From positions 576,001 through 640,000 of the forward strand of contig CAXXSR010000001.1 of assembly GCA_963662615.2 (NCBI GenBank): a stretch of DNA of 64,000 bases, written 5' to 3'. The position numbers and the translations under genes are program-made. This document shows, in pieces, positions 14,372-42,141 of this stretch. The notes below the pieces were generated by a model that was given only the letters and a program-made list of their open reading frames with translations, made no database searches and was not told the origin of the DNA. The DNA is from Dehalococcoidia bacterium. GTDB taxonomy: Bacteria; Chloroflexota; Dehalococcoidia; Bin125. Numbering within the stretch: the stretch's first letter is position 1; every line of letters begins with the position of its first letter.

Positions 14372-14680
14372 CTAGTGCGCTCAAGTGGGGCCGTGGGCGT
14401 GAAGCGGATCCACCGCGACCGCGAACGAGCGCCAGAAGAGGAACCGCTTCGTCTCCAGGTGGACGCTCTTGGCGAAACGCGGCAGCCCGAACGCCACCAG
14501 GATCTCCAGCCCCTGCTGCCGCACGATCTGGTAGCGCGATGTGTTCTTGCCCTTGAGGTAGGTGTCGACCGACACCTCCGCGCGGCCGCCTCAACCGATG
14601 GGCGGAATGTAGTCCAGCGCCATCACGCCGCCGCGCCTGCGGGCCAGGTGGACGGCTTCGTCGCTCAGGGAGATCTTCAT
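14372..14680 (-). CDS. HesB/IscA-like small selenoprotein with two predicted Sec residues (U30, U100), 102 aa
   Basis: ATG 14680 reads MKISLSDEAVHLARRRGGVMALDYIPPIG-TGA(14593..14591)-GGRAEVSVDTYLKGK...HAHGPT-TGA(14383..14381)-AH-TAG. Each TGA is followed by a SECIS-like hairpin, and selA is in the window. Confidence 0.8.
14560..14577 (-). promoter_or_regulatory. SECIS-like hairpin for Sec30
   Basis: AGGTGTC-GGTC-GACACCT, starting 13 nt after the UGA. Confidence 0.75.
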
Positions 14681-14819: not shown

Positions 14820-15215
14820 ATGGCGGCCGTTCGCGGGCTCGTGGAAGTGGTGCTGCTGGTCAACGACATGGAGAGGTCGCTGGCCTTCTACCGCGACGCG
14901 CTGGGCCTTGAGCTCTTCTCTCCGCCCGAGCTGCCGGGCAAGTTCCTCCGCGTCGGCGAGAGGGACGGCGTGCCCGCGCAGATCGTCCTCGTGCCTCGAC
15001 GGGGCGACGACGCCGCTCCCGCCGAGAAGGCGCAGCGCAACCTCCACCACCTCGGCCTGGAGGTGGCGCCGGAAGCGTTCGAGAGCGAGCGCGCCCGCCT
15101 GGCGGCCCTGGGCTACGAACTGCGCCCGGGCACCCACCCGTTCTTGGACGTGGAGGCGTTCTATCTGGACGACCCCGACGGCAACGAGGTCGAGATCGTC
15201 ACCCGCCCGGCCTGA
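14820..15215 (+). CDS. VOC/glyoxalase family protein
   Basis: VVLLVNDMERSLAFYRDALGL, LHHLGL and FYLDDPDGNEVEI. Confidence 0.9.
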   Translation: MAAVRGLVEVVLLVNDMERSLAFYRDALGLELFSPPELPGKFLRVGERDGVPAQIVLVPRRGDDAAPAEKAQRNLHHLGLEVAPEAFESERARLAALGYELRPGTHPFLDVEAFYLDDPDGNEVEIVTRPA

Positions 15216-15300: not shown

Positions 15301-15395
15301 TCGCTCACCCTGAGCCTGTCGAGGGGTCGTCCTGAGCGTGCCTGCCCTGACCTGTCCTTCCCTCCTGGGAAGGAGCGTGCCGAAGGGGCGAACGG
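15301..15395. repeat. Nested palindromic REP-like element, family 1 (CCTGAGCCTGTCGAAGG core)
   Basis: Core repeated, with an internal TCCTTCCC-TCCT-GGGAAGGA hairpin insert; ends in GGCGAACGG. Confidence 0.85.
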
Positions 15396-15439: not shown

Positions 15440-16210
15440 ATGAGCATCAGCAGAAACGGAGCGCTGCCGCTCGGACTTGCGGCAGCCGTCATTGTCGCGG
15501 CCTTGGTCGCCGGGGCGATCCTGCCGGGCCGCGCGACGGCGCAGTCGACGTTCAGCGCCACGCTGAGCGGCGACGCCGAGGTGCCGGCGGTCACCACGGA
15601 CGCCAGCGGCAGCTTCACCGCCACGATCGCGGACGGGGCGCTGGACTTCAGCTTGACCTCGGACGCGACAGGGATCACCGCATCGCACATCCACTTGGGC
15701 GGGCCGGACGAGAACGGCGGCGTTGTGGCCTTCCTCTTCGGCCCAGCCGATCCCGCTGTCGATGGCGTCGAGGCCACCGGCACCATCACCGTCGACGACC
15801 TCCTGGACCCCCTGGCGGGCGATTGGGACGGCTTCGTCGCGGCGCTGAACGACGGGACCGCCTACGTCAATGTCCACACCGAGGCCAACCCGCCCGGTGA
15901 AGTGCGCGGCCAGATCGCGCCGGCGGCGGAGGCCGCGCCGGAGCCCGAGCCGCCCGCGCCCGAACCTGAGGCGCCCGCGCCGGAGCCTGAGCCGGCCGCG
16001 CCTGAACCACCGGCGCCCGCGCCGACGCCCGAACCGGCCCCCGCGCCCGAGGCGCCGGCGGCCGCCCCCGACTCACTGCCCGCGACCGGCAGCGGGGGAC
16101 TGGCGGCAGACGGCGGCGGAGCCTCCGGCTGGATCTTGGCGCTGCTTGCGGCCGGCTTCACGCTCGGTGCCGGCCTGGGCCTCCGCCGGACCCTGCGGCG
16201 GCGCGCCTGA
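15440..16210 (+). CDS. CHRD-domain surface protein with LPxTG-like sorting signal
   Basis: Signal peptide; LSGDAEVPAV, SHIHLG and YVNVHTEANPPGEVRGQI (CHRD); PEP-rich linker; LPATG + TM + RRTLRRRA. Confidence 0.9.
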   Translation: MSISRNGALPLGLAAAVIVAALVAGAILPGRATAQSTFSATLSGDAEVPAVTTDASGSFTATIADGALDFSLTSDATGITASHIHLGGPDENGGVVAFLFGPADPAVDGVEATGTITVDDLLDPLAGDWDGFVAALNDGTAYVNVHTEANPPGEVRGQIAPAAEAAPEPEPPAPEPEAPAPEPEPAAPEPPAPAPTPEPAPAPEAPAAAPDSLPATGSGGLAADGGGASGWILALLAAGFTLGAGLGLRRTLRRRA

Positions 16211-16269: not shown

Positions 16270-16298
16270 GTAGCGACGTGCGGTGTCCTCCGTCGTAG

Positions 16299-16326
16299 TT
16301 GACAAATTACGGCCGCCGCCTATCCT
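16299..16326 (+). promoter_or_regulatory. Sigma70-type promoter of the second CHRD gene
   Basis: TTGACA-N16-TATCCT. Confidence 0.7.
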
Positions 16327-16360
16327 CCCACGCGGCAAGGCGTCGCCAGAGCCCATCACC

Positions 16361-16448
16361 CCGTTCGTCCTGAGCCTGTCGAAGGGGCGAACGGGGGGCT
16401 GGAGGATGAGGTCATCCGCTCACCCTGAGCCTGCCGAAGGGCGAACGG
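16361..16448. repeat. Two family-1 REP-like units
   Basis: CCGTTCGTCCTGAGCCTGTCGAAGGGGCGAACGG (16361-16394) and CCGCTCACCCTGAGCCTGCCGAAGGGCGAACGG (16416-16448). Confidence 0.85.
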
Positions 16449-16492
16449 GGAGTCCGGGCAGGAGCGGCGCCGCCTGGGGGAGGACGAGAATA

Positions 16493-17905
16493 ATGACCAT
16501 CAGCAGAAACGGAGCGCTGCCGCTCGGACTTGCGGCAGCCGTCATTGTCGCCGCCTTGGTCGCCGGGACGATCATGCCGGGCCGCGCGGCGGCGCAGGCG
16601 ACGTTCACCGCGACGCTCAGCGGCGACGCCGAGGTGCCGGCGGTCATCACGGACGCCACCGGCAGCTTCACCGCCACCATTAGGGACGGGGCGCTGGATT
16701 ACACCCTGACCTCTGACGCGACGGGGATCACCGCAGCGCACATCCACATCGCTACGCCTTTTGAGAACGGGCCGTTCGTGGCGTTCCTCTTCGGGCCGGA
16801 AGACCCGGGGGTGGACGGCGTCGACACCAGCGGCACCATCACCGTCGACGACTTACTGGACGTCGTGGCGGGCGATTGGGACGGCTTCGTCGCGGCGTTT
16901 CACGACGGCACCGCTTACGTCAACGTCCACACTGAGGCCAACGCGGGCGGGGAAGTGCGCGGCCAGATCGTCAATGCGGCGGCGCAGGCCGACCCTGCCG
17001 CGCTCGTGGAGCAGTATCTGGCCGCTATCAGTGCCGGCGACGTCGATGCTGCCGTCGCGCTGTTCACCGACGACGTGGTCTTGGAGGGCGACGTATGCAA
17101 CCTCGATGCCTGCGTCGGCATCGACGCGGCGCGCGCCTCCACCGAGCAGGACGTCGAGGACCAGATCAACCTCACCCTCGCCAGCGCTGAGGTGATCGAC
17201 GGTACCGTGACCGGCACGGTCGAGCTCCGTTCACCCGAGCTTACGCAGTTTGGCATCGAGCGCCTCGTCTTTGCGCTCACGGCGGAGGTCAGGGACGGCA
17301 AGATCGCCCGCATCAACGCCGAACTGGACCTGACGGACTCGGAGACGGCCGAGGTTGCCGCGCTGTTTGAGCGATTCGAGGAGGAAGGGGCTGGAGCGCA
17401 GCCCGCCAGCGCCGTGGAGTTGCTGGGCCTGCTCAGTGCCGCGGGCTTCGACCCGGCGCTCCAGGAGATCGCGACGACGCGGCCCTGGATCCCGGTCTCC
17501 GCTGCCGGGGTGCTCGTCGTGGCGGGCGGCCGGGCCGAGGTCTACGAGCTTGATAGCCCCCAAGCGGTCGGGGCGGCGCTCGACCAGTTCCCCGGCTTGA
17601 CCGCCAACGTGACAATCTGGGGTAGCGGTTCGCTCATCGTGATTCTGCTCGATGCGCCGGACAGCCCGGCGGCCGAGGAGGCGCTGTTCTCGGTGCTCGG
17701 TGGGCCAGCCATCGCGACCATCGCGGGCCTCATCCCGCCCCCCGAGGTACCGGCAGAAGCGCCCGACGCGCTCCCGGACACGGGCAGCGGCGGACTGGCG
17801 GCGGACGGCGGTGGATCCTCCGGCTGGATCTGGGCGCTGCTTGCCGCTGGCCTCACGCTGGGCGCGGGGCTGGCCGTCCGCCGGACCCTGCCGCGGCGCT
17901 CCTAA
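16493..17905 (+). CDS. CHRD + SnoaL/NTF2-like surface protein with LPxTG-like sorting signal (paralog of 15440..16210)
   Basis: Near-identical signal peptide and CHRD domain; LVEQYLAAISAGDVDAAVALFTDD (SnoaL-like); LPDTG + TM + RRTLPRRS. Confidence 0.88.
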   Translation: MTISRNGALPLGLAAAVIVAALVAGTIMPGRAAAQATFTATLSGDAEVPAVITDATGSFTATIRDGALDYTLTSDATGITAAHIHIATPFENGPFVAFLFGPEDPGVDGVDTSGTITVDDLLDVVAGDWDGFVAAFHDGTAYVNVHTEANAGGEVRGQIVNAAAQADPAALVEQYLAAISAGDVDAAVALFTDDVVLEGDVCNLDACVGIDAARASTEQDVEDQINLTLASAEVIDGTVTGTVELRSPELTQFGIERLVFALTAEVRDGKIARINAELDLTDSETAEVAALFERFEEEGAGAQPASAVELLGLLSAAGFDPALQEIATTRPWIPVSAAGVLVVAGGRAEVYELDSPQAVGAALDQFPGLTANVTIWGSGSLIVILLDAPDSPAAEEALFSVLGGPAIATIAGLIPPPEVPAEAPDALPDTGSGGLAADGGGSSGWIWALLAAGLTLGAGLAVRRTLPRRS

Positions 17906-17933: not shown

Positions 17934-18129
17934 CCCTCTCCATCATTCCGCGGAAGGATGGAGAGGGGGCCGGGGGTGAGGTCATCCGCTCACCCTGACC
18001 TGTCCTTCGCGCAGCAGAAGGAGCTTGTCGAAGGGCGAACTGGACAGTCGCCGCCCAGCCGCCGCGCCCCCCATTCGTCCTGACTTGTCCTTGACTCCTG
18101 GGAAGGAGCTTGTCGAAGGGGCGAATGGG
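17934..18129. repeat. Cluster of family-2 (17934-17981) and nested family-1 (17986-18043, 18071-18129) palindromic elements
   Basis: CCCTCTCCATC..GATGGAGAGGG and CCTGA[C(C/T)TGTCCTT..GAAGGA]GCTTGTCGAAGGG. Confidence 0.85.
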
Positions 18130-18247: not shown

Positions 18248-18859
18248 ATGAGCAGTGAAGCGACCCCAGGCGACGACCTCCGCATCTCCTTCAGCGACGA
18301 CGCCGTCGCCAAGCTGCATGAAGTGATCGTAGCCTATCCCGAACCGCTGGCGGGGCTGCGGCTAAAGATCCTGGGGCGAAGCGAGGGCGGCTTCGAGCAC
18401 GTCCTCACGCTCGTGGAGGAGGGGACGGAGTCCGACGACGATCCCGTCATCGAGGTCTCCGGCCTGCGCGTCTACGTGGAGGCCGACAATGCCCAGGACC
18501 TCAAGGGCGTCTCCGTCGATTACCGCGACAAGGGTCCCAACGAGAGCGGGCTCGAGTTCAGCAATCCCAACCCGATCTGGCGCGACCCGCTCGCTCTGGA
18601 GATCCAGAACCTCTTCGACGAGTACGTGAACCCGGGCGTCGCCGCCCACGGCGGTCACGTCAGTCTCATCGACGTGCGCGACAACAAGGCCTACATCCAG
18701 CTGGGCGGCGGCTGCCAGGGCTGCGGCATGGCGGACGTCACTCTCAAGCAGGGGATCGAGGTCGCGATCAAGGAGGCGGTGCCCAGCATCGAAGAGGTCG
18801 TCGACGTGACGGACCACGGCGCCGGCGACAACCCCTACTACCAGCCGGCCAAGAAGTAG
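18248..18859 (+). CDS. nfuA: Fe-S cluster carrier NfuA (degenerate A-type domain + NifU domain)
   Basis: ISFSDDAV N-terminal domain; VNPGVAAHGGHV, GGGCQGCGMADVTLKQGIE and VDVTDH..GDNPYY. Confidence 0.9.
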   Translation: MSSEATPGDDLRISFSDDAVAKLHEVIVAYPEPLAGLRLKILGRSEGGFEHVLTLVEEGTESDDDPVIEVSGLRVYVEADNAQDLKGVSVDYRDKGPNESGLEFSNPNPIWRDPLALEIQNLFDEYVNPGVAAHGGHVSLIDVRDNKAYIQLGGGCQGCGMADVTLKQGIEVAIKEAVPSIEEVVDVTDHGAGDNPYYQPAKK

Positions 18860-18888
18860 CCGCCGCCGGCCCCAGTGCCGGAACGACC

Positions 18889-20427
18889 GTGACGCGCGTT
18901 CTCCTCATCTCCACCTACGAGGATGGCCACCAGCCCCTCGGGCTGGCCGCTCCCGCGGCCGCCCTTCGCGCCGCCGGCCACGACGTCCGCTGCTTCGACC
19001 TCGCGGTGGAGACGCCGGAAGCCGGCATCTTCACCGACGTGGACCTGATCGGCATCTCCGTCCCCATGCACACCGCCGCCCGCCTCGGCATCGCCCTGGC
19101 CCGGCGGCTGCGCCGCCTCAACCCCACCGCCCACCTGACCTTCTACGGCCTCTACGGCTCGGAGCTGCACGACCACCTCACGCGGGACGGCATCGCCGAC
19201 TCGGTCATCGGCGGCGAGTACGAGCCCGGCCTCCGCGCCCTCGCCGACGACATCGGCGCCGGCCGTTCCGCCGACGCGCTCTCCCGATCCGGCATGGGAG
19301 CGGCGCCGCTCTTTCCCCGCCAGCGCTACCCCGTCCCCGACCGGCGCGACCTGCCCTCGCTGGACCGCTACGCGCATCTGGACACCGGCGACGAGCTGCG
19401 CCTCGCCGGCTACGTGGAGGCCACGCGCGGCTGCGCGCATCGCTGCACCCACTGCCCCCTCACGCCGACCTATGGGGGCCGCCTGCGACTGGTGCAGCCC
19501 GAGACGGTGCTGGCCGACATCGACAGCCTTGTGGCGAGCGGCGCTCGGCACATCACCTTCGGCGACCCCGACTTCCTCAACGCCGTCCCCCATTCGCTCG
19601 CCATCGTCCGGGAGATGCGGCGCCGCCACCCCGACACCACCTTCGACGCCACCATCAAGGTCGAGCACCTGCTGGAGCACGCGAACGCCCTGCCCCACCT
19701 CCACGACCTCGGCTGCCTTTTCATCACCTCCGCCTTCGAATCCGTGGACGACCGGCTGCTCGCCATTCTCGACAAAGGCCACACCCGCGCCGACATGGAG
19801 CGCGCCCTCGCCCTCGCCCAGCGGGCCTTGCTGGTGCTCCGCCCCACCTGGCTCCCGTTCACGCCCTGGACGTCGCTAGGCGATTTCTTCGCCATCCTGG
19901 AGTTCGTCGAGGCGCATGACCTCGTCTATCACGCTCAGCCGGTGCAGTACGCCCTGCGGCTGCTCCTGCCGCCCGGCTCCCCCCTGATCGACGTGATCCG
20001 CGCCGACGGCCTCCTGGACGGCTTCGACCCGGACGGCCTCACCCACCGCTGGCGCAACCCCGACCCCGCGGTTGACACGCTGCAGGCGCGCCTGGCCGGC
20101 GTCGTGGCGGCGGCCGCCACCCCGGATGCCCAGGGCCGCGCGGAGGACGTGGCGCACACGTTCGCGCGCATCAAAGCGGAGGCCGTGGCGGCGCTCCCCG
20201 TTCGTCCTGACCTGTCCTTCCCTCCTGGGAAGGAGCCTGTCGAAGAGCCTGCCCTGAGCTTGCCTGTCCTGATCCTTCCCCGCGGGAAGGACGAAGGGCC
20301 GAAGGGGCGAACGGCACCCGCCCCGAACGGCCACCGCCACGTCCCCGGCCTCACCGAAGCCTGGTTCTGTTGAGCGGAGCCCACCGAGGAGCAGTTGGCT
20401 CCTCTCGATAAGGCCCTGAGCATCTAG
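18889..20427 (+). CDS. CUAEP-tail radical SAM selenoprotein (Sec495; B12-binding-like N-terminal domain), 512 aa
   Basis: VLLISTYE.GHQPLG; CxxxCxxC = TRGCAHRCTHCP; ends LTEAWFC-TGA(20371)-AEPTEEQLAPLDKALSI-TAG; SECIS-like hairpin follows the TGA. Confidence 0.88.
20198..20314. repeat. 117-bp nested family-1 palindromic element inserted in-frame in the radical SAM gene
   Basis: CCGTTCG...CGAACGG termini; length equals 39 codons; translates as PVRPDLSFPPGKEPVEEPALSLPVLILPRGKDEGPKGRT. Confidence 0.88.
20386..20404 (+). promoter_or_regulatory. SECIS-like hairpin of the radical SAM gene
   Basis: GAGGAGC-AGTTG-GCTCCTC, starting 12 nt after the UGA. Confidence 0.78.
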
Positions 20428-20498
20428 GGGCGCTCACGCGCTCGCCGCCGTTGAAGTCGGGGAGGCTGGAGCCGGGTCGCCTGCCGCGCCCACGCCCC

Positions 20499-20615
20499 CC
20501 GTTCGTCCTGACCTGTCCTTCCCTCCTGGGAAGGAGCCTGTCGAACAGCCTGCCCTGAGCTTGCCTGTCCTGATCCTTCCCCGCGGGAAGGACGAAGGGC
20601 CGAAGGGGCGAACGG
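20499..20615. repeat. Second copy (116/117 identical) of the 117-bp element, direct orientation
   Basis: Aligned by eye to 20198-20314; one G/C difference. Confidence 0.9.
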
Positions 20616-20817
20616 CGCCCGCGCCCGCGCCACCCCCGCCCCCGGCCTTGAGCGACACCCAGACGCCTCAGGCGGGCCCTCGGGGAGCGACGGGGCTCTG
20701 AGCAGGCGCGGTTGTCCGCGGCTGCCGTGATTCGTTCCGTCACGGCATCGGCTGTAGCGTAGTGTCGCTGCAACATTCGTTTCGTCCCCTTCAGGGGTGG
20801 TCCGTGTGGAGGCCTGC

Positions 20818-21075
20818 GTGACGCGAGTGGACAAGCTCATAACGAAGCTCCAGCGAAAGCCGGCGGAAGCTGCATTCTCGGACATTGAGAGGCTGCTCAA
20901 CGCGCACGGCTGGGTCGTGGAGCGCTGGAGCGGGAGCAACGCCATATTTGTTCCGGAAGACGATCCAGGGCACGTGGGACTCAGAGTGGTGACTCTGAAA
21001 GGAAGGAAGGTCGCACGAGCCTATATCCAGAGAGTCCTTGAGCACCTGGACCTCGATCAGAAAGGAGGGGGCTAG
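20818..21075 (+). CDS. HicA-like type II toxin fold protein (orphan; GSH motif reads GSN)
   Basis: GGAGG RBS + GTG; FSDIERLLNAHGWVVERWSGSNAIF..KGRKVARAYIQRVL resembles HicA; no hicB adjacent. Confidence 0.7.
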   Translation: MTRVDKLITKLQRKPAEAAFSDIERLLNAHGWVVERWSGSNAIFVPEDDPGHVGLRVVTLKGRKVARAYIQRVLEHLDLDQKGGG

Positions 21076-21195
21076 CCCTGACTTTGCGCGCCAGGGGCCC
21101 AACTCTCTCTCTCCTCACCACCCCGCCCGCCGCTGCGCCCGCCCCGTCGTCCGCGTCACTCACGACGGCCAGAGGGGCTCGTCGGAGCTCCCTGC

Positions 21196-21411
21196 TCATG
21201 GGTTCAATTGCACGCCGCACACACAAATCCGCTCTGCTCCCCCCAATCCCGTTCGGTCACCATATTTAAAGTTGAGCGGCGCGTGGGAGAGCTTCCGATA
21301 GCACGAATGGCAGTACCGCCTCTTGCATTCTCCGCAGCACTGCCGGTAGAAAATGAAGCGCCAGACCGCCCTCCGTCCATTACCACAGACTGTGCATCTG
21401 ACTTGGACCAT
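21196..21411 (-). CDS. Small Cys-rich putative zinc-finger protein (71 aa)
   Basis: CTVC, CCGECKRRYCHSC and CVC: 9 Cys in a FYVE-like spacing; lower GC than the flanks. Confidence 0.55.
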   Translation of the reverse strand: MVQVRCTVCGNGRRAVWRFIFYRQCCGECKRRYCHSCYRKLSHAPLNFKYGDRTGLGGAERICVCGVQLNP

Positions 21412-21510
21412 GCTTGTCGCACCGGCAGCGGCTAAGCGAACTCCGCGAATCCGCCCAGCCTACTCCGCGTGGGAGTCCCCCTCCCGGCCGCGCCCTTCCC
21501 GATCGCTGTT

Positions 21511-21690
21511 CTACGCCAGCCGGGCGATGAGCCCGACGATTAGCGCCCCGACTACCACGATCAGCCACAGAATCAATATCGGCCGAGCGATCCATCGTTC
21601 GAGCGGTTCGAAATCCACTGGGGCCAGGGGATCTCCAGCGCCATTGAAGGAACCGCTTGGGCTGCTGCCATCCCAACGCTCAAGTGCCAT
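21511..21690 (-). CDS. Small single-TM hypothetical protein
   Basis: RBS-like purine run upstream; C-terminal hydrophobic helix ILILWLIVVVGALIVGLIA. Confidence 0.5.
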   Translation of the reverse strand: MALERWDGSSPSGSFNGAGDPLAPVDFEPLERWIARPILILWLIVVVGALIVGLIARLA

Positions 21691-22018
21691 TGCCACACTC
21701 CTGTCTTCCCCCTCAAGGTGGCACGTCGTCAGTTCCGCGGGCAGGTGCGGGCGTCCCATTCGCCATGGGACGAATGACCCATCCGCGCCGCTAGTCAGGA
21801 CGCGTCCGGCGGGCGAGACGGAATGAGGCTGGACGATAGCAACGAGAATGCCGCCGGGTTGCGGGGCACGCGTCTCCGGCTCGCCGACCTACCGCACGAA
21901 TCCGGGCTCCTCCCCCGAGGCGGTCCATCGTGGCGGCGAAGAGCTGCCACTCCAATTTCCTGCTCCTCGCCGCCTGCGCTCCGGCTCATTCTCGGCGTCG
22001 CTTTGCGGTCGCGATTCG

Positions 22019-23260
22019 TTAAGTGCTCGGCTCGATCTCGATCCGCAGCCGGGAGTGTGCTGCACGCAGCGCCCCCTCCACCTGCGCGGGCGTCTCCGCC
22101 TTGGCGAAGATGAAGCCCAGGTATTCGCCGCCCTCCGGCAGCGGCTCCACGACCTGCCCCACGCGCAGCGTCATCGTCACTTCCTCGATACCGGCAACCG
22201 CTCGCGCCTCGTCCAAGCCCTGCACCGCCGTCAGCCGTCCCTGGGCCGGAATCGGGATCATCATCACCCCCGCCGCCGATGCTTCTCGCTCGAACGAATC
22301 GATCGGCGCACCCGTCGCGTGGCGCAGCACGATCTCCTCCAGCGCCATCCCCGTGCCGAAGCGCAGCGTGCGCGCGCAGAGCCCGCCGATGGTCCGCGCG
22401 GCGATGTCCAGCGGCCAGATTCCCTCCGCGTTGAGGCGCAGCTCCGCGTGTACCGGCCCCTCCACGATGCCCAGCGCCCGCGTCGCTCGCTGCACGCAAT
22501 CGGCGATCGCCCGCTGCTGCTCCGCCGCCAACCGCGACGGCGTCACGTAGATGGTCTCCTCGAAGAACGGTCCCTGCAGCGGGTCGGGCTTGTCGAAGAG
22601 GGCCAGCGGGTGCAGCGTCCCTTCCCGCAGCAGCCCCTCCAGCGACACCTCATCGCCGGGGATGTACCCCTCCACCAAGTACGCGCGTGCCGTCTCGCCG
22701 CACTCCTCCGCCACGTCGGGGCGCTCCAGGATGGCGCTTAGCCGTCGCACCGCCGCCACGAACGACGCCGCATCGTCGGCGCGGATGACGCCGCGGCTCG
22801 CCGCCAGCGACAGCGGCTTCACGACGCAGGGATACGCCACCTCCGCCGCGACCCGCTCCGCATCCTCGTCCAGCGACGAGAGGCGAAACGTCGGTGAGGG
22901 CAGACCCGCGGCGGCGAGGCGCTCGCGCAGCACCGCTTTGTTTCGTGTCGCCTCCGCCGCCTCCACGGCGTTGTGGGACAGCGCCAGCATTTGGGCGGCG
23001 CGCGCCGCCAGCACCGTTCCCGTGTCGTCCACCGCTACGACGGCGTCAAGCGGATAGGCGTCGGCGAACGTCGCGATCGCCCGCGCCCCCTCCTCCGGCC
23101 TCGCGAAGCTCGCCGTCAACGTCCGCCCGGGAAACATCTCCGCGACCGGCTGGCCCCTGTCGGAGCCCACGACGATCTCCAAGCCCAGCTTCGCCGCCGC
23201 CGCCATGAAGTCGGGCGCCCGGTACGACGCCGTGGGAATCAGAAGGAGGACGCGGGTCAT
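22019..23260 (-). CDS. ATP-grasp enzyme, L-amino-acid-ligase-like
   Basis: NKAVLRERL, PCVVKPLSLAASRGVIRADD, VEGYIPGDEVSLEG, GPVHAELRL and IAARTIGG. Confidence 0.88.
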   Translation of the reverse strand: MTRVLLLIPTASYRAPDFMAAAAKLGLEIVVGSDRGQPVAEMFPGRTLTASFARPEEGARAIATFADAYPLDAVVAVDDTGTVLAARAAQMLALSHNAVEAAEATRNKAVLRERLAAAGLPSPTFRLSSLDEDAERVAAEVAYPCVVKPLSLAASRGVIRADDAASFVAAVRRLSAILERPDVAEECGETARAYLVEGYIPGDEVSLEGLLREGTLHPLALFDKPDPLQGPFFEETIYVTPSRLAAEQQRAIADCVQRATRALGIVEGPVHAELRLNAEGIWPLDIAARTIGGLCARTLRFGTGMALEEIVLRHATGAPIDSFEREASAAGVMMIPIPAQGRLTAVQGLDEARAVAGIEEVTMTLRVGQVVEPLPEGGEYLGFIFAKAETPAQVEGALRAAHSRLRIEIEPST

Positions 23261-23606: not shown

Positions 23607-24155
23607 ATGGTCATGCGCATCGGTGAGCTGGCCCAGTGCACGGGGGTGCCCCCCAAGACGATCCGCTACTACGAGGGCATTGAGCTGTTGCCGTCGCCGC
23701 GACGCCAGCTCTCCGGCTACCGCGCCTACGATGACGAGGACGTCGCTCGGCTCCGCTTCGTCGCCAAAGCGAAGCTGCTGGGGCTGACGTTGGAAGAGGT
23801 CGGCGACATCCTCCGCGCCAGCGATCCCGACAGCGTCAACTGCGATCACGTCCTCTCCCTGCTGGAGGCCAAGCGCGACCGCATGGACGCCTGGATCGAG
23901 GAGGCGCGGACGCTTCGCGACGTCCTGGACCGCACCATCGCCGCCTCTCGCGACCGGCTTCAGACGGAGCGCTCCGGCGCCTACCACTGCCCCGTCATTG
24001 AGCGCGGCCTGCATGAGCGCGCCCTCCACCCCGGCCCCTCACGCCACCACGAGATCGAGGGCGCGGAAGCGGCCGCCGCGTCCGTCGTCGCATCCGCCGT
24101 ACGATCGGGCGGCCCCATCCGCCACGAAGGGAAGCGCAGCGATGCCCCCCACTGA
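23607..24155 (+). CDS. Heavy-metal-responsive MerR-family regulator
   Basis: MRIGELA..TIRYYE..GYRAY HTH; [11 protein letters not shown]; NCDHV and HCPVI. Confidence 0.9.
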
Positions 24156-26544
24156 GGACGCCGGCGTGGCGGCGCCCGACGCGCCGCAACGCGAGGTCGT
24201 GCTGCCGGTGCGGGGGATGCACTGCGCCTCATGCGTACTGCGCATCGAGACCGCGCTGGAGGCGGTGCCCGGCGTCGCCGATGCCAGCGTCAACCTCGCC
24301 AGCGAGCGCGCCACCGTGCGCGTCGTGGCGGGCCTCGCCGACGAAGCGCTGGTCGAGGCCGTGGAAGGCGCCGGCTATTCAGTCCGGCAAGCGGCCTCAG
24401 CGGACGCCGTCGACGAGGAGGCGGAGGAGCGCGAGCGCGCCCGCGAGCGGCGCGCCCTCTTGCAAGACGCGGTGCTCGCACTGGCGCTGGGATGGTCCGC
24501 CTTCCTCGCCCTGCAGATCAACCGCTGGGCGGACTTGAACTGGGACAAAGACGCCCTCTTCATCACGCTCTTCGCCGTCGCCACGCCGGCCTTTCTCTTC
24601 ACCGGCCGCCACATCTTCGTCGCCGCCTTCCGCGTCGCGCGACACCGCTCCACCGACATGGACACGCTCATCACCATGGGCGTCTGGGCGGCCTTCGGCT
24701 ACAGCGTCGCCGCCACCTTCGCCCCCGGCCCCTTCGCCGACGCCGGCCTCAGGCGCGAGACGTTCTACGAGACGGCGCTGATCATCGTCGGTTTCGTCTC
24801 CCTGGGCCGCTATCTGGAGGCGCGCGCGAAGGGCCGTACCTCCCGCGCCATCAAGCGGCTGCTCACCCTCCGCCCCCAGACCGCGCACGTCCTCCGCGAC
24901 GGCGAGGAGCGGGAAGTGCCCGTCGACACGCTCGTCGTCGGTGATGAGGTCGTGGTCCGTCCCGGCGAACAGTTCCCTGTCGACGGCGCCGTCCTGGACG
25001 GCCTCAGCAGCGCCGACGAGTCCATGCTCACCGGCGAGAGCATTCCCGTCGACAAGCGGCCGGGCGATCGCGTCTTCGGCGCCACCATCAACGGCACCGG
25101 GCTGATCCGTTTCCGCGCGACTGAAGTCGGCAGCGCCACCGTGCTCGCACGCATCATCGCCCTGGTCCAGGCGGCGCAAGGATCGAAGGCGCCCGTCCAG
25201 CATCTCGCCGACCGTGTGGCCTCCATCTTCGTCCCCGTCGTGATCGCCATTGCGCTCGGCGCCTTCATCCTTTGGCTGCTCGTGGGCCCCGACCCGGAAC
25301 TCACCTTCGCGGTTCTCAACGGCGTCGCGGTGCTGATCGTGGCCTGCCCCTGCGCCCTGGGGCTGGCCACGCCCACGGCGATCATGGCGGGCACGGGAAA
25401 GGCGGCGGAGCACGGCATCCTCTTCCGCAACGCCGAATCATTGGAGCGCGCGCACAACGTCGACACGGTGATCCTGGACAAGACCGGCACCATGACCGTG
25501 GGCCGCCCCACCGCCACTGATGTGGTCGGCCTGAACGGTCACTCGCGCGACCAGCTCCTCCGCCTCGCCGCCGCCGTGGAACGCGGCTCCGAGCACGCGC
25601 TCGCCCAGGCAATCGTTGAGGCAGCGCAAGCGGCGGGCCTGACCACGACTGCGGCCACCGACTTCAACGCCCTCCCCGGCCGTGGCGCCCGCGCCCGGGT
25701 CGATGGCCGCACCGTCGAGGTCGGCAACGCGCGTTTCATGGCCGAGCAGGGCTACCCGCTCGGCGACGCCGAGCAGCAGGGCGCGGCCTTCGCCGCGGCG
25801 GGGAAGACGCCGGTGTTCGTCGCCGTCGGCGGCGGGCTGGCCGGCATTATCGCCATCGCCGACACGGTCAAGCCGACTTCCCGGCGCGCCGTCGCCGATC
25901 TTCGCGCTCTGGGCCTGCGCACGCTGCTGCTCACCGGCGACAACCGCGCGACGGCCCAGGCCGTCGCCGACGACATCGGCGTGGATGAGGTCATCGCCGA
26001 CGTGCTCCCGGGGGACAAGGCTGCCGCCGTCGCCCAACTGCAAGCAGAGGGCCACACGGTGGCGATGGTCGGCGACGGCATCAACGACGCTCCCGCCCTG
26101 GCGCAGGCCGACGTGGGCATCGCCATGGGCGGCGGCGCCGACGTCGCCATCGAGGCGGCCGGCGTCACCCTCATGCGCGACGACCCTCGCGGCGTCGTCC
26201 AGGCCCTGGCGGTCAGCCGCGTCACGATGCGCACCATCCGCCAAAATCTGGCTTGGGCCTTCGGCTACAACATCCTGCTCATCCCCATCGCCGCCGGTCT
26301 CTTCTACCCCGTCTTCCAAGCCGCCGGCCCTGTGCCCGGCGGGCTCGAATGGCTCTTCGGCGAGCGCGGCTTCTTCGAGCCCATCGTGGCCGGCTTCGCC
26401 ATGATGCTCTCCAGCCTCAGCGTGATGGCGAACTCTCTCCGCCTGCAACGGCTCCGCCTGCGCAGCGACGACGGCGCTCCACCGGCCTCGCACCGCCACG
26501 CCGGGCCGCGCCCCGGCGTCGCGCCCGCCCGCTCCAGCGGCTAA
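24142..26544 (+). CDS. copA: Cu(I)-translocating P1B-1 ATPase
   Basis: HMA GMHCASC; TGES; [10 protein letters not shown]; DKTGT; GDGINDAP; YN in TM7; MMLSS in TM8. Confidence 0.93.
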
Positions 26545-26564
26545 CGACGAACGGAAGCACAACG

Positions 26565-26783
26565 ATGACCACCAAGACGGTGACACTCCACCTTCCCGCC
26601 ATTCACTGCGACGGTTGCCTGGGCGCGGTCCGCCGGACGCTGGAAGGCGCCGGCGCGGCGTTCGAGTCGGGCGACGTCCAATCCAAGCGGGTGACGGTGC
26701 GTTTCGACCCCGACCGCCTCAGCCGCGAGGACGTCGTTGGCGCGCTCGAGCGCAGTGGCTTCCCTCCCGAAGCTGAGGAATGA
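26565..26783 (+). CDS. copZ: Heavy-metal-associated (CopZ-like) chaperone
   Basis: AIHCDGC motif, 72 aa, directly after copA. Confidence 0.8.
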   Translation: MTTKTVTLHLPAIHCDGCLGAVRRTLEGAGAAFESGDVQSKRVTVRFDPDRLSREDVVGALERSGFPPEAEE

Positions 26784-40749: not shown

Positions 40750-42141
40750 TCAGTGTTCGCGCAGCGCCGCCTGGAGCGCGCCGACGAGTGACGCCGTCTC
40801 GTCCTCGTCAACCGTGCGGGGATCCAACAGCACCGCGTCCCGTTCCACGCGCGCCACCACGGGCGGATCGCCCAAGCGCAGCCGCTCCGCCAGCCGCTGC
40901 GCCCTGCCGCCCTCGCGCCGCAGTGCCAAGACGGACGTGGGCAAGCTTTCGCCCGGCAGCGACCCCCCGCCGATCATCGACTGGCCCGCCTCAACGTCGC
41001 CCGCCCCCAACGCCAGCCGCCACCCCTCCGCGCGCTCGCGCATCGCTGCTGCCGGTGCGCTGATCATGCGCCAGACGGGGATCGCGGACTCCGCTTCCCC
41101 CAGCAGGTAGTGCCGCAGCGTCGCCGCCAGCCCGGCGATGGTGGTCTTGTCCGCCCGCAACGCCCGCGCCAGCGGGTGCCGTCTCAGTTGCGCCACCAGC
41201 GCCGCCCGGCCCACGATAATCCCCGCCTGCGGCCCGCCCAGCAGCTTGTCGCCGGAGAACATCACCAGGTCCGCCCCCGCCGCCAGGCTCTCCTGCGGCC
41301 TTGGCTCCGGCGCCAGCCCGAAGCGGCTGGTGTCCAGGAGGCAGCCGCTGCCGATGTCGTCCAGCAGCAGCGCCCCCGCCGCCGAGGCCACCGCCTGCAG
41401 CTCCGCCAGCGTGGGCTGCTCCGTGAAGCCCACGATGCGGAAGTTGCTGGCATGCACGCGCAGGATCGCGGCGGTGGCATCGCCCACGGCGCCCTCGTAG
41501 TCGAGCGCGTGGGTCCGGTTGGTCGTGCCCACCTCCACCAGCTTGGCGCCGCTCTGGCGGCAGACGTCGGGGATGCGGAAGCCCCCACCGATCTCCACCG
41601 CCTGCCCGCGACTCACGATCACCTCGCGCTCGCCCACGAGCGCCGAGAGCGCCAGCAGCAGCGCGGCGGCGTTGTTGTTCACCGCCATGCCGGCCTCGGC
41701 GCCGGTCACCTCGCGCAGGATCCGCTCCAGGTGCGCCAGCCGCGACCCGCGCTCGCCGGCCGTCAGATCGAACTCCAGATTGGAATAGCCGCGGCCCGCG
41801 GCGTTCATCGCCTCACGGGCGGCCGTGGAAAGCGGTGCGCGCCCCAGGTTCGTGTGCAGGATCACGCCGGTCGCGTTGATGACGGCGCGCAGCGACGGTG
41901 CCGCGCTGTCTTCCAGACTGCTCGCGACCGCCTCCGCCAGCGCCTCGATGCGGGGGGCCGCCGCGCCTCCCCCGCCATCGCCCGACGGCGCTGCGCCCGC
42001 GATCGTCGCGCGCGCCCGCTCCAAGACGGCGCGGCTGTGCGCCGTCACCCGCTCGGCAGGGAAGCGCTGCCGCGCCCCCTCCAGCGACGGGTGCTGCAGC
42101 AGTTGGTCGACGCTGGGTAAACCGCGATACGGATTGGACAT
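40750..42141 (-). CDS. selA: L-seryl-tRNA(Sec) selenium transferase
   Basis: VINATGVILHTNLGRAPL, YSNLEFDL, VNNNAAA, EIGGGFRIPD, EVGTTN and FSGDKLLGGPQAG. Confidence 0.96.
   Translation of the reverse strand: MSNPYRGLPSVDQLLQHPSLEGARQRFPAERVTAHSRAVLERARATIAGAAPSGDGGGGAAAPRIEALAEAVASSLEDSAAPSLRAVINATGVILHTNLGRAPLSTAAREAMNAAGRGYSNLEFDLTAGERGSRLAHLERILREVTGAEAGMAVNNNAAALLLALSALVGEREVIVSRGQAVEIGGGFRIPDVCRQSGAKLVEVGTTNRTHALDYEGAVGDATAAILRVHASNFRIVGFTEQPTLAELQAVASAAGALLLDDIGSGCLLDTSRFGLAPEPRPQESLAAGADLVMFSGDKLLGGPQAGIIVGRAALVAQLRRHPLARALRADKTTIAGLAATLRHYLLGEAESAIPVWRMISAPAAAMRERAEGWRLALGAGDVEAGQSMIGGGSLPGESLPTSVLALRREGGRAQRLAERLRLGDPPVVARVERDAVLLDPRTVDEDETASLVGALQAALREH

Follow-up and report, generated by a model that had tools for sequence, protein, structure and literature searches.

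The 64,000-nucleotide stretch of a Dehalococcoidia bacterium genome analysed here (positions 576,001 to 640,000 of contig CAXXSR010000001.1, GenBank assembly GCA_963662615.2; hereafter the window) carries, in close succession, genes for an Nfu-type Fe-S carrier, for a radical S-adenosylmethionine (SAM) selenoprotein whose C-terminal tail holds a vicinal cysteine-selenocysteine (Cys-Sec) pair, and for an ATP-grasp enzyme of the L-amino-acid-ligase type. Comparison with other genomes shows that an iron or Fe-S helper, a CUAEP-tail radical SAM protein and this ligase form a three-gene module conserved across several phyla. The radical SAM gene family has already been catalogued (NF040546); new here is its linkage to the ligase and to Nfu or YggX, of which we found no account in the literature. 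By analogy with the arsinothricin enzyme ArsL, we tentatively propose, with a probability of roughly 0.4, that the radical SAM enzyme would transfer a 3-amino-3-carboxypropyl (ACP) radical to a soft atom held on its Cys-Sec arm, that the ligase would take up the product, and that Nfu or YggX would maintain the cluster of the radical SAM enzyme.

Conservation of the module was assessed in the best 80 of 555 confirmed genome loci of the radical SAM gene, which belongs to a family of at least 6969 proteins at E <= 1e-30 among the 8000 candidates scored. In tblastn searches with the window proteins, the ATP-grasp gene was recovered in 48 of the 80 loci (46-63% identity) and Nfu in 49. Where at least 3 kb of flanking sequence was available on both sides (50 well-flanked loci), ATP-grasp was present in 34, Nfu in 33, both in 31 and neither in 14; a stricter set of 39 loci with flanks of at least 6 kb gave 27, 27, 26 and 11, respectively. 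Blind all-against-all clustering of the 5913 open reading frames (ORFs) of 81 loci returned the radical SAM, Nfu and ATP-grasp genes, along with antisense shadow ORFs, as the only recurrent families, the next being a P-type ATPase present in 11 loci. A partner sought in the 24 loci without Nfu and ligase yielded only lineage-local synteny. The linkage is seen in Chloroflexota, Gemmatimonadota, Acidobacteriota, KSB1, Rokubacteria/Methylomirabilota, Nitrospirota and Calditrichota, and the arrangement changes from one to another: Nfu, radical SAM and convergent ligase in Dehalococcoidia-type Chloroflexota, the close relatives of the window; ligase, radical SAM and Nfu in Blastocatellia; radical SAM, Nfu and ligase in Rokubacteria and Methylomirabilota; and, in Gemmatimonadota, a ligase and Nfu on the strand opposite the radical SAM gene. 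Such variation in gene order between phyla argues against mere inherited synteny.

Co-occurrence was also profiled in 201 Chloroflexota genomes that are 80% complete or better, two of them unpublished (G038 and G168), by matching the radical SAM and ligase tables by hand. The radical SAM gene was found in 44 genomes and the ligase in 53; 42 genomes carried both, 2 the radical SAM gene alone and 11 the ligase alone. The two genes lie within 5 kb of each other in 29 of the 42 genomes that have both, and are far apart or on different contigs in the other 13. An earlier note made from the bare letters of this stretch (the sequence-only reading) had proposed looking for the ATP-grasp gene beside the radical SAM gene elsewhere, and it is found there in 48 of 80 loci, in 34 of the 50 well-flanked ones and in 42 of the 44 Chloroflexota genomes positive for the radical SAM gene. 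That only inheritance or chance has placed the three genes side by side, with no functional system behind them, would be suggested by the 14 well-flanked loci with neither neighbour, by the many loci that come from related Chloroflexota, and by the 1.6 kb of probably foreign DNA that parts two of the window's genes. We regard this as highly improbable, because the linkage survives rearranged order and orientation across the phyla named above, the co-occurrence persists in the 13 of 42 genomes where the genes are unlinked, and no further gene family recurs; by the comparative test, this explanation already fails.

The radical SAM gene begins with a GTG at 18889, 29 nt beyond the end of the nfuA-like gene, and its product is made up of a B12-binding-like domain, a radical SAM barrel with the CxxxCxxC motif, a stretch of helices, a linker that is disordered and the conserved tail LTEAWFCUAEPTEEQLAPL, so that the gene order, spacing, cluster motif and N-terminal domain are all as first read from the sequence. 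Both Pfam domains score above their cut-offs (PF02310, B12-binding, residues 6-108, 35.5 bits; PF04055, Radical_SAM, residues 177-313, 45.7 bits), and the cluster motif, C182/C186/C189, is invariant in 80 sequences. The protein is a full member of NF040546, the 'CUAEP/CCAEP-tail radical SAM (seleno)protein' family that the sequence-only reading had named: against a cut-off of 500 bits, it scores 539.2 when truncated at the TGA and 560.9 with its tail. A six-frame genome search with the same model gave 554.8 bits, with profile positions 441-467 joined to the body across one TGA. The AlphaFold2 model of the protein (overall predicted local distance difference test score, pLDDT, 81.7) has as fold neighbours the class-B-like radical SAM enzymes AprD4, TsrM, OxsB and CysS, and also MiaB. 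When solved structures were searched by sequence, nothing ArsL-like was found, TsrM being the sole match (E 5e-5). The radical SAM, Nfu and ligase genes are each present once in the window's genome, in which neither a YggX nor an Fmt-like gene was found.

With translation table 11 the gene ends at ...PGLTEAWFC-TGA (20371-20373), whereas reading the TGA as selenocysteine (U) continues the frame as AEPTEEQLAPLDKALSI to a TAG at 20425-20427; the motif WFC-TGA-AEP occupies 20362-20382. Across the 80 loci, the column after the conserved Cys holds TGA in 62, TGC in 13 and TGT in 3, and two loci end at contig edges. C[U/C][A/S]EP is retained in 78 of the 80, the remaining two being clipped by contig ends. 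Full-length Cys-form homologues in an 18-sequence alignment read WFCCAEPTEEQLAPLDRA..., collinear with the post-TGA text of the window. Two expectations of the sequence-only reading, an in-frame continuation giving a Cys-Sec tail (TGA in 62 loci, Cys codons in 16) and conservation of the AEP residues beyond the TGA (78 of 80), are thereby borne out.

The hairpin that had been noted behind the TGA also finds support in comparison, as a selenocysteine insertion sequence (SECIS). Its stem starts 12 nt past the UGA, within the tail's own coding sequence. Covariation was measured in 62 gap-free TGA-type sequences, namely the window and all TGA-type loci but one (61 of 62; L091 dropped out owing to an indel): 84.1% of the cells are paired, 81 cells are compensatory, and 0 of 500 shuffles reach the covariation score; the top bases of the hairpin, CAGU, are invariant. 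In the 16 Cys-codon sequences, by contrast, these columns have 50.9% of cells paired, a percentage reached by 337 of 500 shuffles, and give no covariation signal. Support for the hairpin rests on this comparison, since the lone fold of 20360-20450 (91 nt) gives no signal (z -0.13; 85 of 200 shuffles at least as stable). The stem is formed from the codons of variable tail residues (EE..AP versus RD..GP), and the peptide sequence and the RNA pairing therefore co-vary. The genome encodes the machinery for selenocysteine incorporation: tRNA-Sec (74.5 bits; tRNA-SeC with anticodon tca by ARAGORN), selA (TIGR00474, 537.7 bits) at 40750-42141 on the reverse strand of the same window, about 20 kb from the selenoprotein genes, and, by genome search, selB (341.5 bits) and selD (368.7 bits, with a TGA of its own). 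On comparative grounds, then, the TGA of the radical SAM gene is read as selenocysteine by way of a SECIS element.

Judged by profile scores, ArsL is the closest characterised relative of the window protein. The ArsL model NF040542 is its second-best NCBIfam match, scoring 281 bits across model positions 1-404 (of 423), and the next family, HpnR, follows at 60.6 bits; identity to the annotated ArsL of a Pseudomonas plasmid is 32% over 407 residues. The ArsL homology on which the sequence-only reading leaned is present. To our knowledge, ArsL is the only radical SAM enzyme of canonical fold known to generate an ACP radical and to form a carbon-metalloid bond. If the window enzyme resembles it in mechanism, it would likewise cleave SAM to an ACP radical, and would couple this radical to a soft atom or group gripped by the vicinal Cys-Sec pair, which a flexible C-terminal arm would swing into the barrel. 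Such a reaction would yield a γ-substituted 2-aminobutyrate, an analogue of methionine or of arsinothricin, which the ligase would join to a second amino acid, and Nfu or YggX would keep the radical SAM cluster loaded. Two preprints, one of them 10.1101/2024.02.01.577332, report that ArsL itself cleaves SAM to the ACP radical, that its C-terminal RCCLKC motif binds As(III) and that all three Cys of the motif take part; the link between the Cys-rich tail and As(III) had also been named in the sequence-only reading. Tail-less ArsL is reported to have unchanged Fe and S content, so that the tail holds no cluster. For the module in the window, the chemistry, the metalloid substrate and the sequence in which the steps would run are all inferred.

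Among the 80 CUAEP-family sequences, the only universal Cys are C182, C186, C189 and C494, plus U/C495. C276 was considered as a third soft ligand and dropped, as it is Cys in just 65 of the 80 sequences; in the 18-row alignment it is at least 90% conserved, and ArsL has Leu there. Extension of the radical SAM C-terminus by the ligase was judged unlikely; the final residues and the tail length vary widely.

The ArsL relationship extends to gene content on plasmids. Among 37 plasmid records matching the radical SAM protein, 36 are of the RCCLKC/ArsL type and one is of the CUAEP type. All six ArsL-type plasmid loci that were read have arsenic gene context, and five of them also carry an ATP-grasp gene: Bacillus cereus (L131), Priestia (L132), Pantoea (L133), Alicyclobacillus (L135) and Klebsiella (L136). 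In Pantoea and Klebsiella this gene stands just after the radical SAM gene, separated from it by a single small hypothetical ORF. Every one of the five loci encodes a CobW-type GTPase together with an acetyltransferase whose annotation is ArsN1 or GNAT, and three (Pantoea, Alicyclobacillus and Klebsiella) hold ArsM and a major facilitator superfamily (MFS) transporter; the Pseudomonas arsQ-arsL-arsM locus has no ATP-grasp gene. The top NCBIfam matches of two ArsL-cluster ligases are the same as those of the window ligase, to which they are 23-25% identical. The presence of ATP-grasp genes in these clusters suggests a peptide form of arsinothricin, and a parallel, undescribed arsinothricin-peptide pathway may exist on the Bacillus, Priestia, Pantoea, Klebsiella and Alicyclobacillus plasmids; our literature search found nothing that links arsinothricin clusters with ATP-grasp enzymes. 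The single CUAEP-type plasmid gene, annotated as encoding a radical SAM protein with a CUAEP/CCAEP tail, belongs to the cultured Thermomicrobium roseum (NC_011961.1, 796591-798027; L130). Its neighbours are genes for a pyridoxal-phosphate-dependent aminotransferase, which diverges from it, and for an MFS transporter, which converges on it; a large GNAT protein is encoded close by, and the 15 kb that were read contain no ligase gene.

The window enzyme might, on this evidence, simply be ArsL in a selenium-dependent form, producing hydroxyarsinothricin that the ligase would convert to an arsinothricin dipeptide. Homology to ArsL and the ATP-grasp ligases in five of six ArsL-type plasmid loci would fit such a role. 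We consider it very improbable, given that the genes that typify ArsL clusters (ArsR, ArsM, aquaporin, ArsN and ars efflux) are not recurrent beside the CUAEP radical SAM gene in 81 loci, that the tail offers two soft ligands and not three, and that the cut-off of the ArsL model is missed. The lack of ars, exporter or resistance genes argues for an intracellular metabolite, not an arsenical antibiotic.

The ATP-grasp gene, which the sequence-only reading had placed as a convergent L-amino-acid ligase about 1.6 kb away, lies convergent to the radical SAM gene, 1591 nt past its TAG, and its ATPgrasp_N, ATP-grasp_4 and LAL_C2 domains all score above the Pfam cut-offs. Among solved structures, BL00235 (3vot, E 7e-41) comes nearest, followed by BacD (1e-19), and the DdaF model is matched at E 7e-14; neither equivalog model is reached, at 70.6 bits for BacD (cut-off 850) and 51.4 bits for DdaF (cut-off 840). 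Residues of catalytic type are invariant in 25 sequences. A role for the ligase as an Fe-S protein was ruled out, with a single invariant Cys in 25 sequences. Because methionine, which BL00235 uses, is an amino acid of the ACP type, a γ-substituted 2-aminobutyrate is by analogy a plausible substrate for a relative of that enzyme. The products reported for BL00235 include Met-Gly and Met-Met (PMC6920838).

The distribution of the ligase allows the order of events to be reversed: the ligase, with Nfu, would make a peptide or amide on its own, and the radical SAM enzyme would be an optional tailoring enzyme acting through a 5'-deoxyadenosyl radical, its Cys-Sec pair serving as a selenenylsulfide like that of thioredoxin reductase or as a hydrogen-atom donor. 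The ligase would then be the hub, since it occurs in 53 Chloroflexota genomes, 42 with the radical SAM gene and 11 without. In a ligase tree, nine of the 11 rows without the radical SAM gene fall outside the clade linked to it and two (both from G144) are nested inside; the tree is quick and midpoint-rooted, and the basal position of these rows is therefore not established, which lessens the force of this point. Just two vicinal chalcogens are universal in the tail, arranged as in the GCUG redox tail that mammalian thioredoxin reductase carries, and the fold neighbours AprD4, TsrM, OxsB and CysS are ordinary class-B-like radical SAM enzymes. Against a redox tail stands the only characterised relative of the protein (281 bits, against at most 60.6 for any other family), which is reported to perform ACP chemistry with a substrate-binding Cys tail. 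We hold this reversed order to be somewhat unlikely, though it deserves to be taken seriously.

The window Nfu has an A-type N-domain that lacks Cys and a NifU domain with a CQGC motif, the Cys of which (C156 and C159) are nearly invariant among homologues; at 102.1 bits it misses the cut-off of the NfuA model TIGR03341 (269). Two-domain Nfu occurs in 27 of the 201 Chloroflexota genomes and adjoins the ligase in 25 of those 27. Because it is nearly confined to the ligase's side, this type of Nfu looks dedicated and not housekeeping. The form of the partner depends on the lineage, being NfuA-type, NFU1-type (Nfu_N plus NifU) or a bare NifU domain, and in some lineages YggX replaces Nfu: YggX (PF04362; NF003817, 129 bits against a cut-off of 74) is present in all 12 Nfu-less loci examined, directly upstream of the radical SAM gene in eight, and was also seen in KSB1, Latescibacterota and Ktedonobacterales loci. 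A complex prediction for the ATP-grasp enzyme with NfuA scored 0.03 against a mark of 0.32 and was not used for or against an interaction.

A dedicated Fe-S or iron helper is the most constant feature beside the radical SAM gene, and it raises a further alternative, in which the tail Cys-Sec pair and other ligands would hold either an Fe-S cluster of auxiliary type or else a persulfide or perselenide. Its S or Se would be attacked by the radical and so sacrificed for sulfur (or selenium) insertion, as in LipA, BioB and MiaB, and Nfu or YggX would rebuild it after each turnover. NfuA reloads the auxiliary cluster of LipA, MiaB is among the fold neighbours, and two-domain Nfu is not housekeeping in the phylum (27 of 201 genomes, 25 beside the ligase). 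The 80 sequences, however, contain no conserved auxiliary Cys motif, Nfu accompanies the ligase also where no radical SAM gene was found, and the reported Fe and S content of ArsL, the same with or without the tail, indicates that its tail binds no cluster. Sacrificial insertion seems to us decidedly unlikely.

Transfer of an ACP radical followed by ligation remains our preferred account, and several observations weigh against it. Eleven of the 53 ligase-positive genomes lack the radical SAM gene, and in all 11 Nfu adjoins the ligase; besides Nfu, nothing else is conserved at these ligase-only loci, and none of the 53 genomes lacks both the radical SAM gene and Nfu. The ligase therefore has a role independent of the radical SAM enzyme, and its pairing with Nfu in these genomes is not explained by a simple pathway in which the radical SAM product is ligated. 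Conversely, of the two genomes with the radical SAM gene alone, one is represented by a contig-end fragment, and the other (G133) is complete and has no ligase match; neither neighbour is found in 14 of the 50 well-flanked loci. The ArsL tail carries CCxxC with three As(III)-binding Cys, whereas the WFCUAEP tail of the window protein offers two soft ligands, C494 and U495, and the 281 bits against NF040542 fall short of its cut-off of 450. The 81-locus clustering shows no recurrent gene for arsenic or another metalloid beside the CUAEP radical SAM gene, and ars, aquaporin, ArsM, ArsN and exporter genes are all missing from the recurrent families. An Fmt-like formyltransferase (PF00551; TIGR00460, 89 bits, below cut-off) occurs in all 12 YggX-type loci (L118-L129), always divergent from yggX, and the model does not yet account for it. 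Because related genomes are not independent of one another, our counts overstate the number of independent events, and the CUAEP/CCAEP family was labelled uncharacterised in a 2022 preprint by Haft. Our estimate is held at the value given above by the ligase-Nfu pairs without the radical SAM gene, by a tail with only two ligands and by the missing ars genes, and the same three points lend real weight to a redox tail and to a sacrificial cluster. The overall interpretation offered by the sequence-only reading has accordingly come through in part: the linkage, the ArsL kinship and the tail stand, and its two-Sec protein and glyoxalase-type enzyme, the missing metalloid genes and the 11 genomes with a ligase-Nfu pair without the radical SAM gene tell against it.

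An extension of our preferred account, which we think unlikely on present evidence, is that a widespread branch of the ArsL superfamily, for the most part selenium-dependent, joins carbon to a heteroatom other than arsenic. Candidates for this atom, which the Cys-Sec arm would hold, are Se, Te, Sb, S and a metal, and a dedicated ligase would build the new amino acid into a dipeptide-like cellular metabolite. If true, Chloroflexota, Acidobacteriota, Gemmatimonadota and other phyla would be making organo-element small molecules of a new class. The much larger sister family of ArsL now appears as a three-protein system open to reconstitution, and not as a mere 'uncharacterised selenoprotein'. It also provides a rare chance to test the role of a Cys-Sec pair against natural Cys-Cys forms, and its SECIS, lying within a conserved tail, is a clean teaching example of co-varying RNA pairing and peptide. 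The features of the window are collected in Table 1.

Table 1. Positions of the module genes, their internal elements and nearby features within the window.
Feature	Position	Strand	Support or remark
Two-TGA small ORF	14372-14680	-	No Pfam match; NF041239 'CC/Se motif family' 20.7 bits, cut-off 40
VOC/glyoxalase gene	14820-15215	+	Domain search
Nfu-type Fe-S carrier, NfuA architecture	18248..18859	+	PF01521 28.8 bits; PF01106 77.8 bits
CUAEP-tail radical SAM selenoprotein, 512 residues, U495	18889..20427	+	NF040546, alignment, genome search
In-frame dispersed repeat copy (family D4) inside the radical SAM linker	20182..20324	+	~32 extra residues (PVRPDLSFPPGKEPVEEPALSLPVLILPRGKD)
In-frame TGA, predicted Sec codon U495, directly after Cys494	20371..20373	+	TGA in 62/80 loci, Cys codon in 16/80
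SECIS hairpin, 7-bp stem	20386..20404	+	GAGGAGC 20386-20392, loop AGUUG, GCUCCUC 20398-20404
Second direct repeat copy, 56 nt past the TAG	20483..20625	+	94% identity over 143 nt; 97% over 133 nt
Lower-GC spacer between the convergent radical SAM and ATP-grasp genes	20650..21850		GC 0.61-0.65 versus 0.69-0.75 in flanking genes
L-amino-acid-ligase-type ATP-grasp, 413 aa	22019..23260	-	ATP-grasp_4 107.9 bits; LAL_C2 71.4 bits; ATPgrasp_N 39.1 bits

The two direct repeat copies flank the segment that encodes the tail and the SECIS. The first corresponds to an insertion in the protein linker (residues ~438-470) at which all 17 other aligned homologues have a gap, and to the disordered part of the AlphaFold2 model, where pLDDT falls below 50 at residues 440-444 and 448-475. 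As the frame, the tail and the SECIS are intact, we read the radical SAM gene as functional. The repeat family, with units of about 60-140 nt, has 72 BLAST matches in the genome, including further copies in the window at 18061-18118 and 15312-15395; it can sit in frame within genes, where it translates as ...PDLSFPPGKE...LPRGKDEGPKGR.... A homologue in another metagenome-assembled genome (MAG; P0030, locus L035) has a different repeat-like insertion at the same linker position. The spacer beyond the second copy is probably inserted DNA and not part of the module: in the relatives L028, L029, L034 and L038 the gap between the radical SAM and ligase genes measures 3-22 nt. It contains a HicA-like ORF (20797-21075, forward strand; HicA_toxin 25.2 bits, under the cut-off of 27) and two small ORFs on the reverse strand without a Pfam match, a Cys-rich one of 71 aa (21196-21411) and one of 82 aa with a hydrophobic tail (21511-21759).

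Other genes of the window lie outside the module. The two-Sec protein and the VOC enzyme that the sequence-only reading had drawn into the system do lie about 4 kb upstream, as it said, and were excluded as members, since by tblastn they recur in 1 and 0 of 80 loci, respectively. The two-TGA ORF is in its own right probably a real double selenoprotein. Its in-frame TGAs fall at IPPIGUGG... and ...HAHGPTUAH, and a homologue in a Chloroflexi MAG (L036:5031-5342, reverse strand) is 67% identical, with both TGAs at the same positions. Downstream of the VOC gene are two paralogous, exported-looking proteins (15440-16210 and 16283-17905, forward strand) that share a 300-nt stretch at 91% identity and have Pro/Ala/Glu-rich repeats; the first of them has no NCBIfam match. 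Directly beyond the ligase gene (23607-26783, forward strand) come a regulator of the MerR family, a P-type ATPase of the heavy-metal kind and a small ORF whose translation reads as having a CxxC motif; we take the group to be local synteny. MerR (2 of 80 loci by tblastn) and the P-type ATPase (3 of 80 by tblastn, 11 of 81 by clustering) were rejected as members of the module.

Each part of the system has a known counterpart that it resembles and from which it departs. Like ArsL, the radical SAM protein combines a B12-like domain, a CxxxCxxC barrel and a vicinal dichalcogen in its C-terminal tail, whereas its pre-tail region is about 90 residues longer. The plasmid clusters of ArsL share with the CUAEP module an ATP-grasp gene of the L-amino-acid-ligase type and a metallochaperone-like gene; they differ in having ars genes and a CobW-type GTPase, where the CUAEP module has Nfu or YggX and no recurrent ars context. 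The window Nfu shares the two-domain architecture of NfuA and the CxxC of its NifU domain, and is no equivalog of the proteobacterial protein (102 versus 269 bits). The ligase has the three-domain architecture of the L-amino acid ligases BL00235, BacD/YwfE and DdaF, yet it forms a clade of its own, tied to Nfu and the CUAEP radical SAM gene and to no known antibiotic cluster. Finally, the hairpin is like bacterial SECIS elements of the fdhF type in being short, in standing 12 nt after the UGA (11 nt in E. coli fdhF), in bearing G and U in its apical loop and in lying within the coding sequence; unlike them, it is specific to its family and draws its stem from the codons of variable tail residues.

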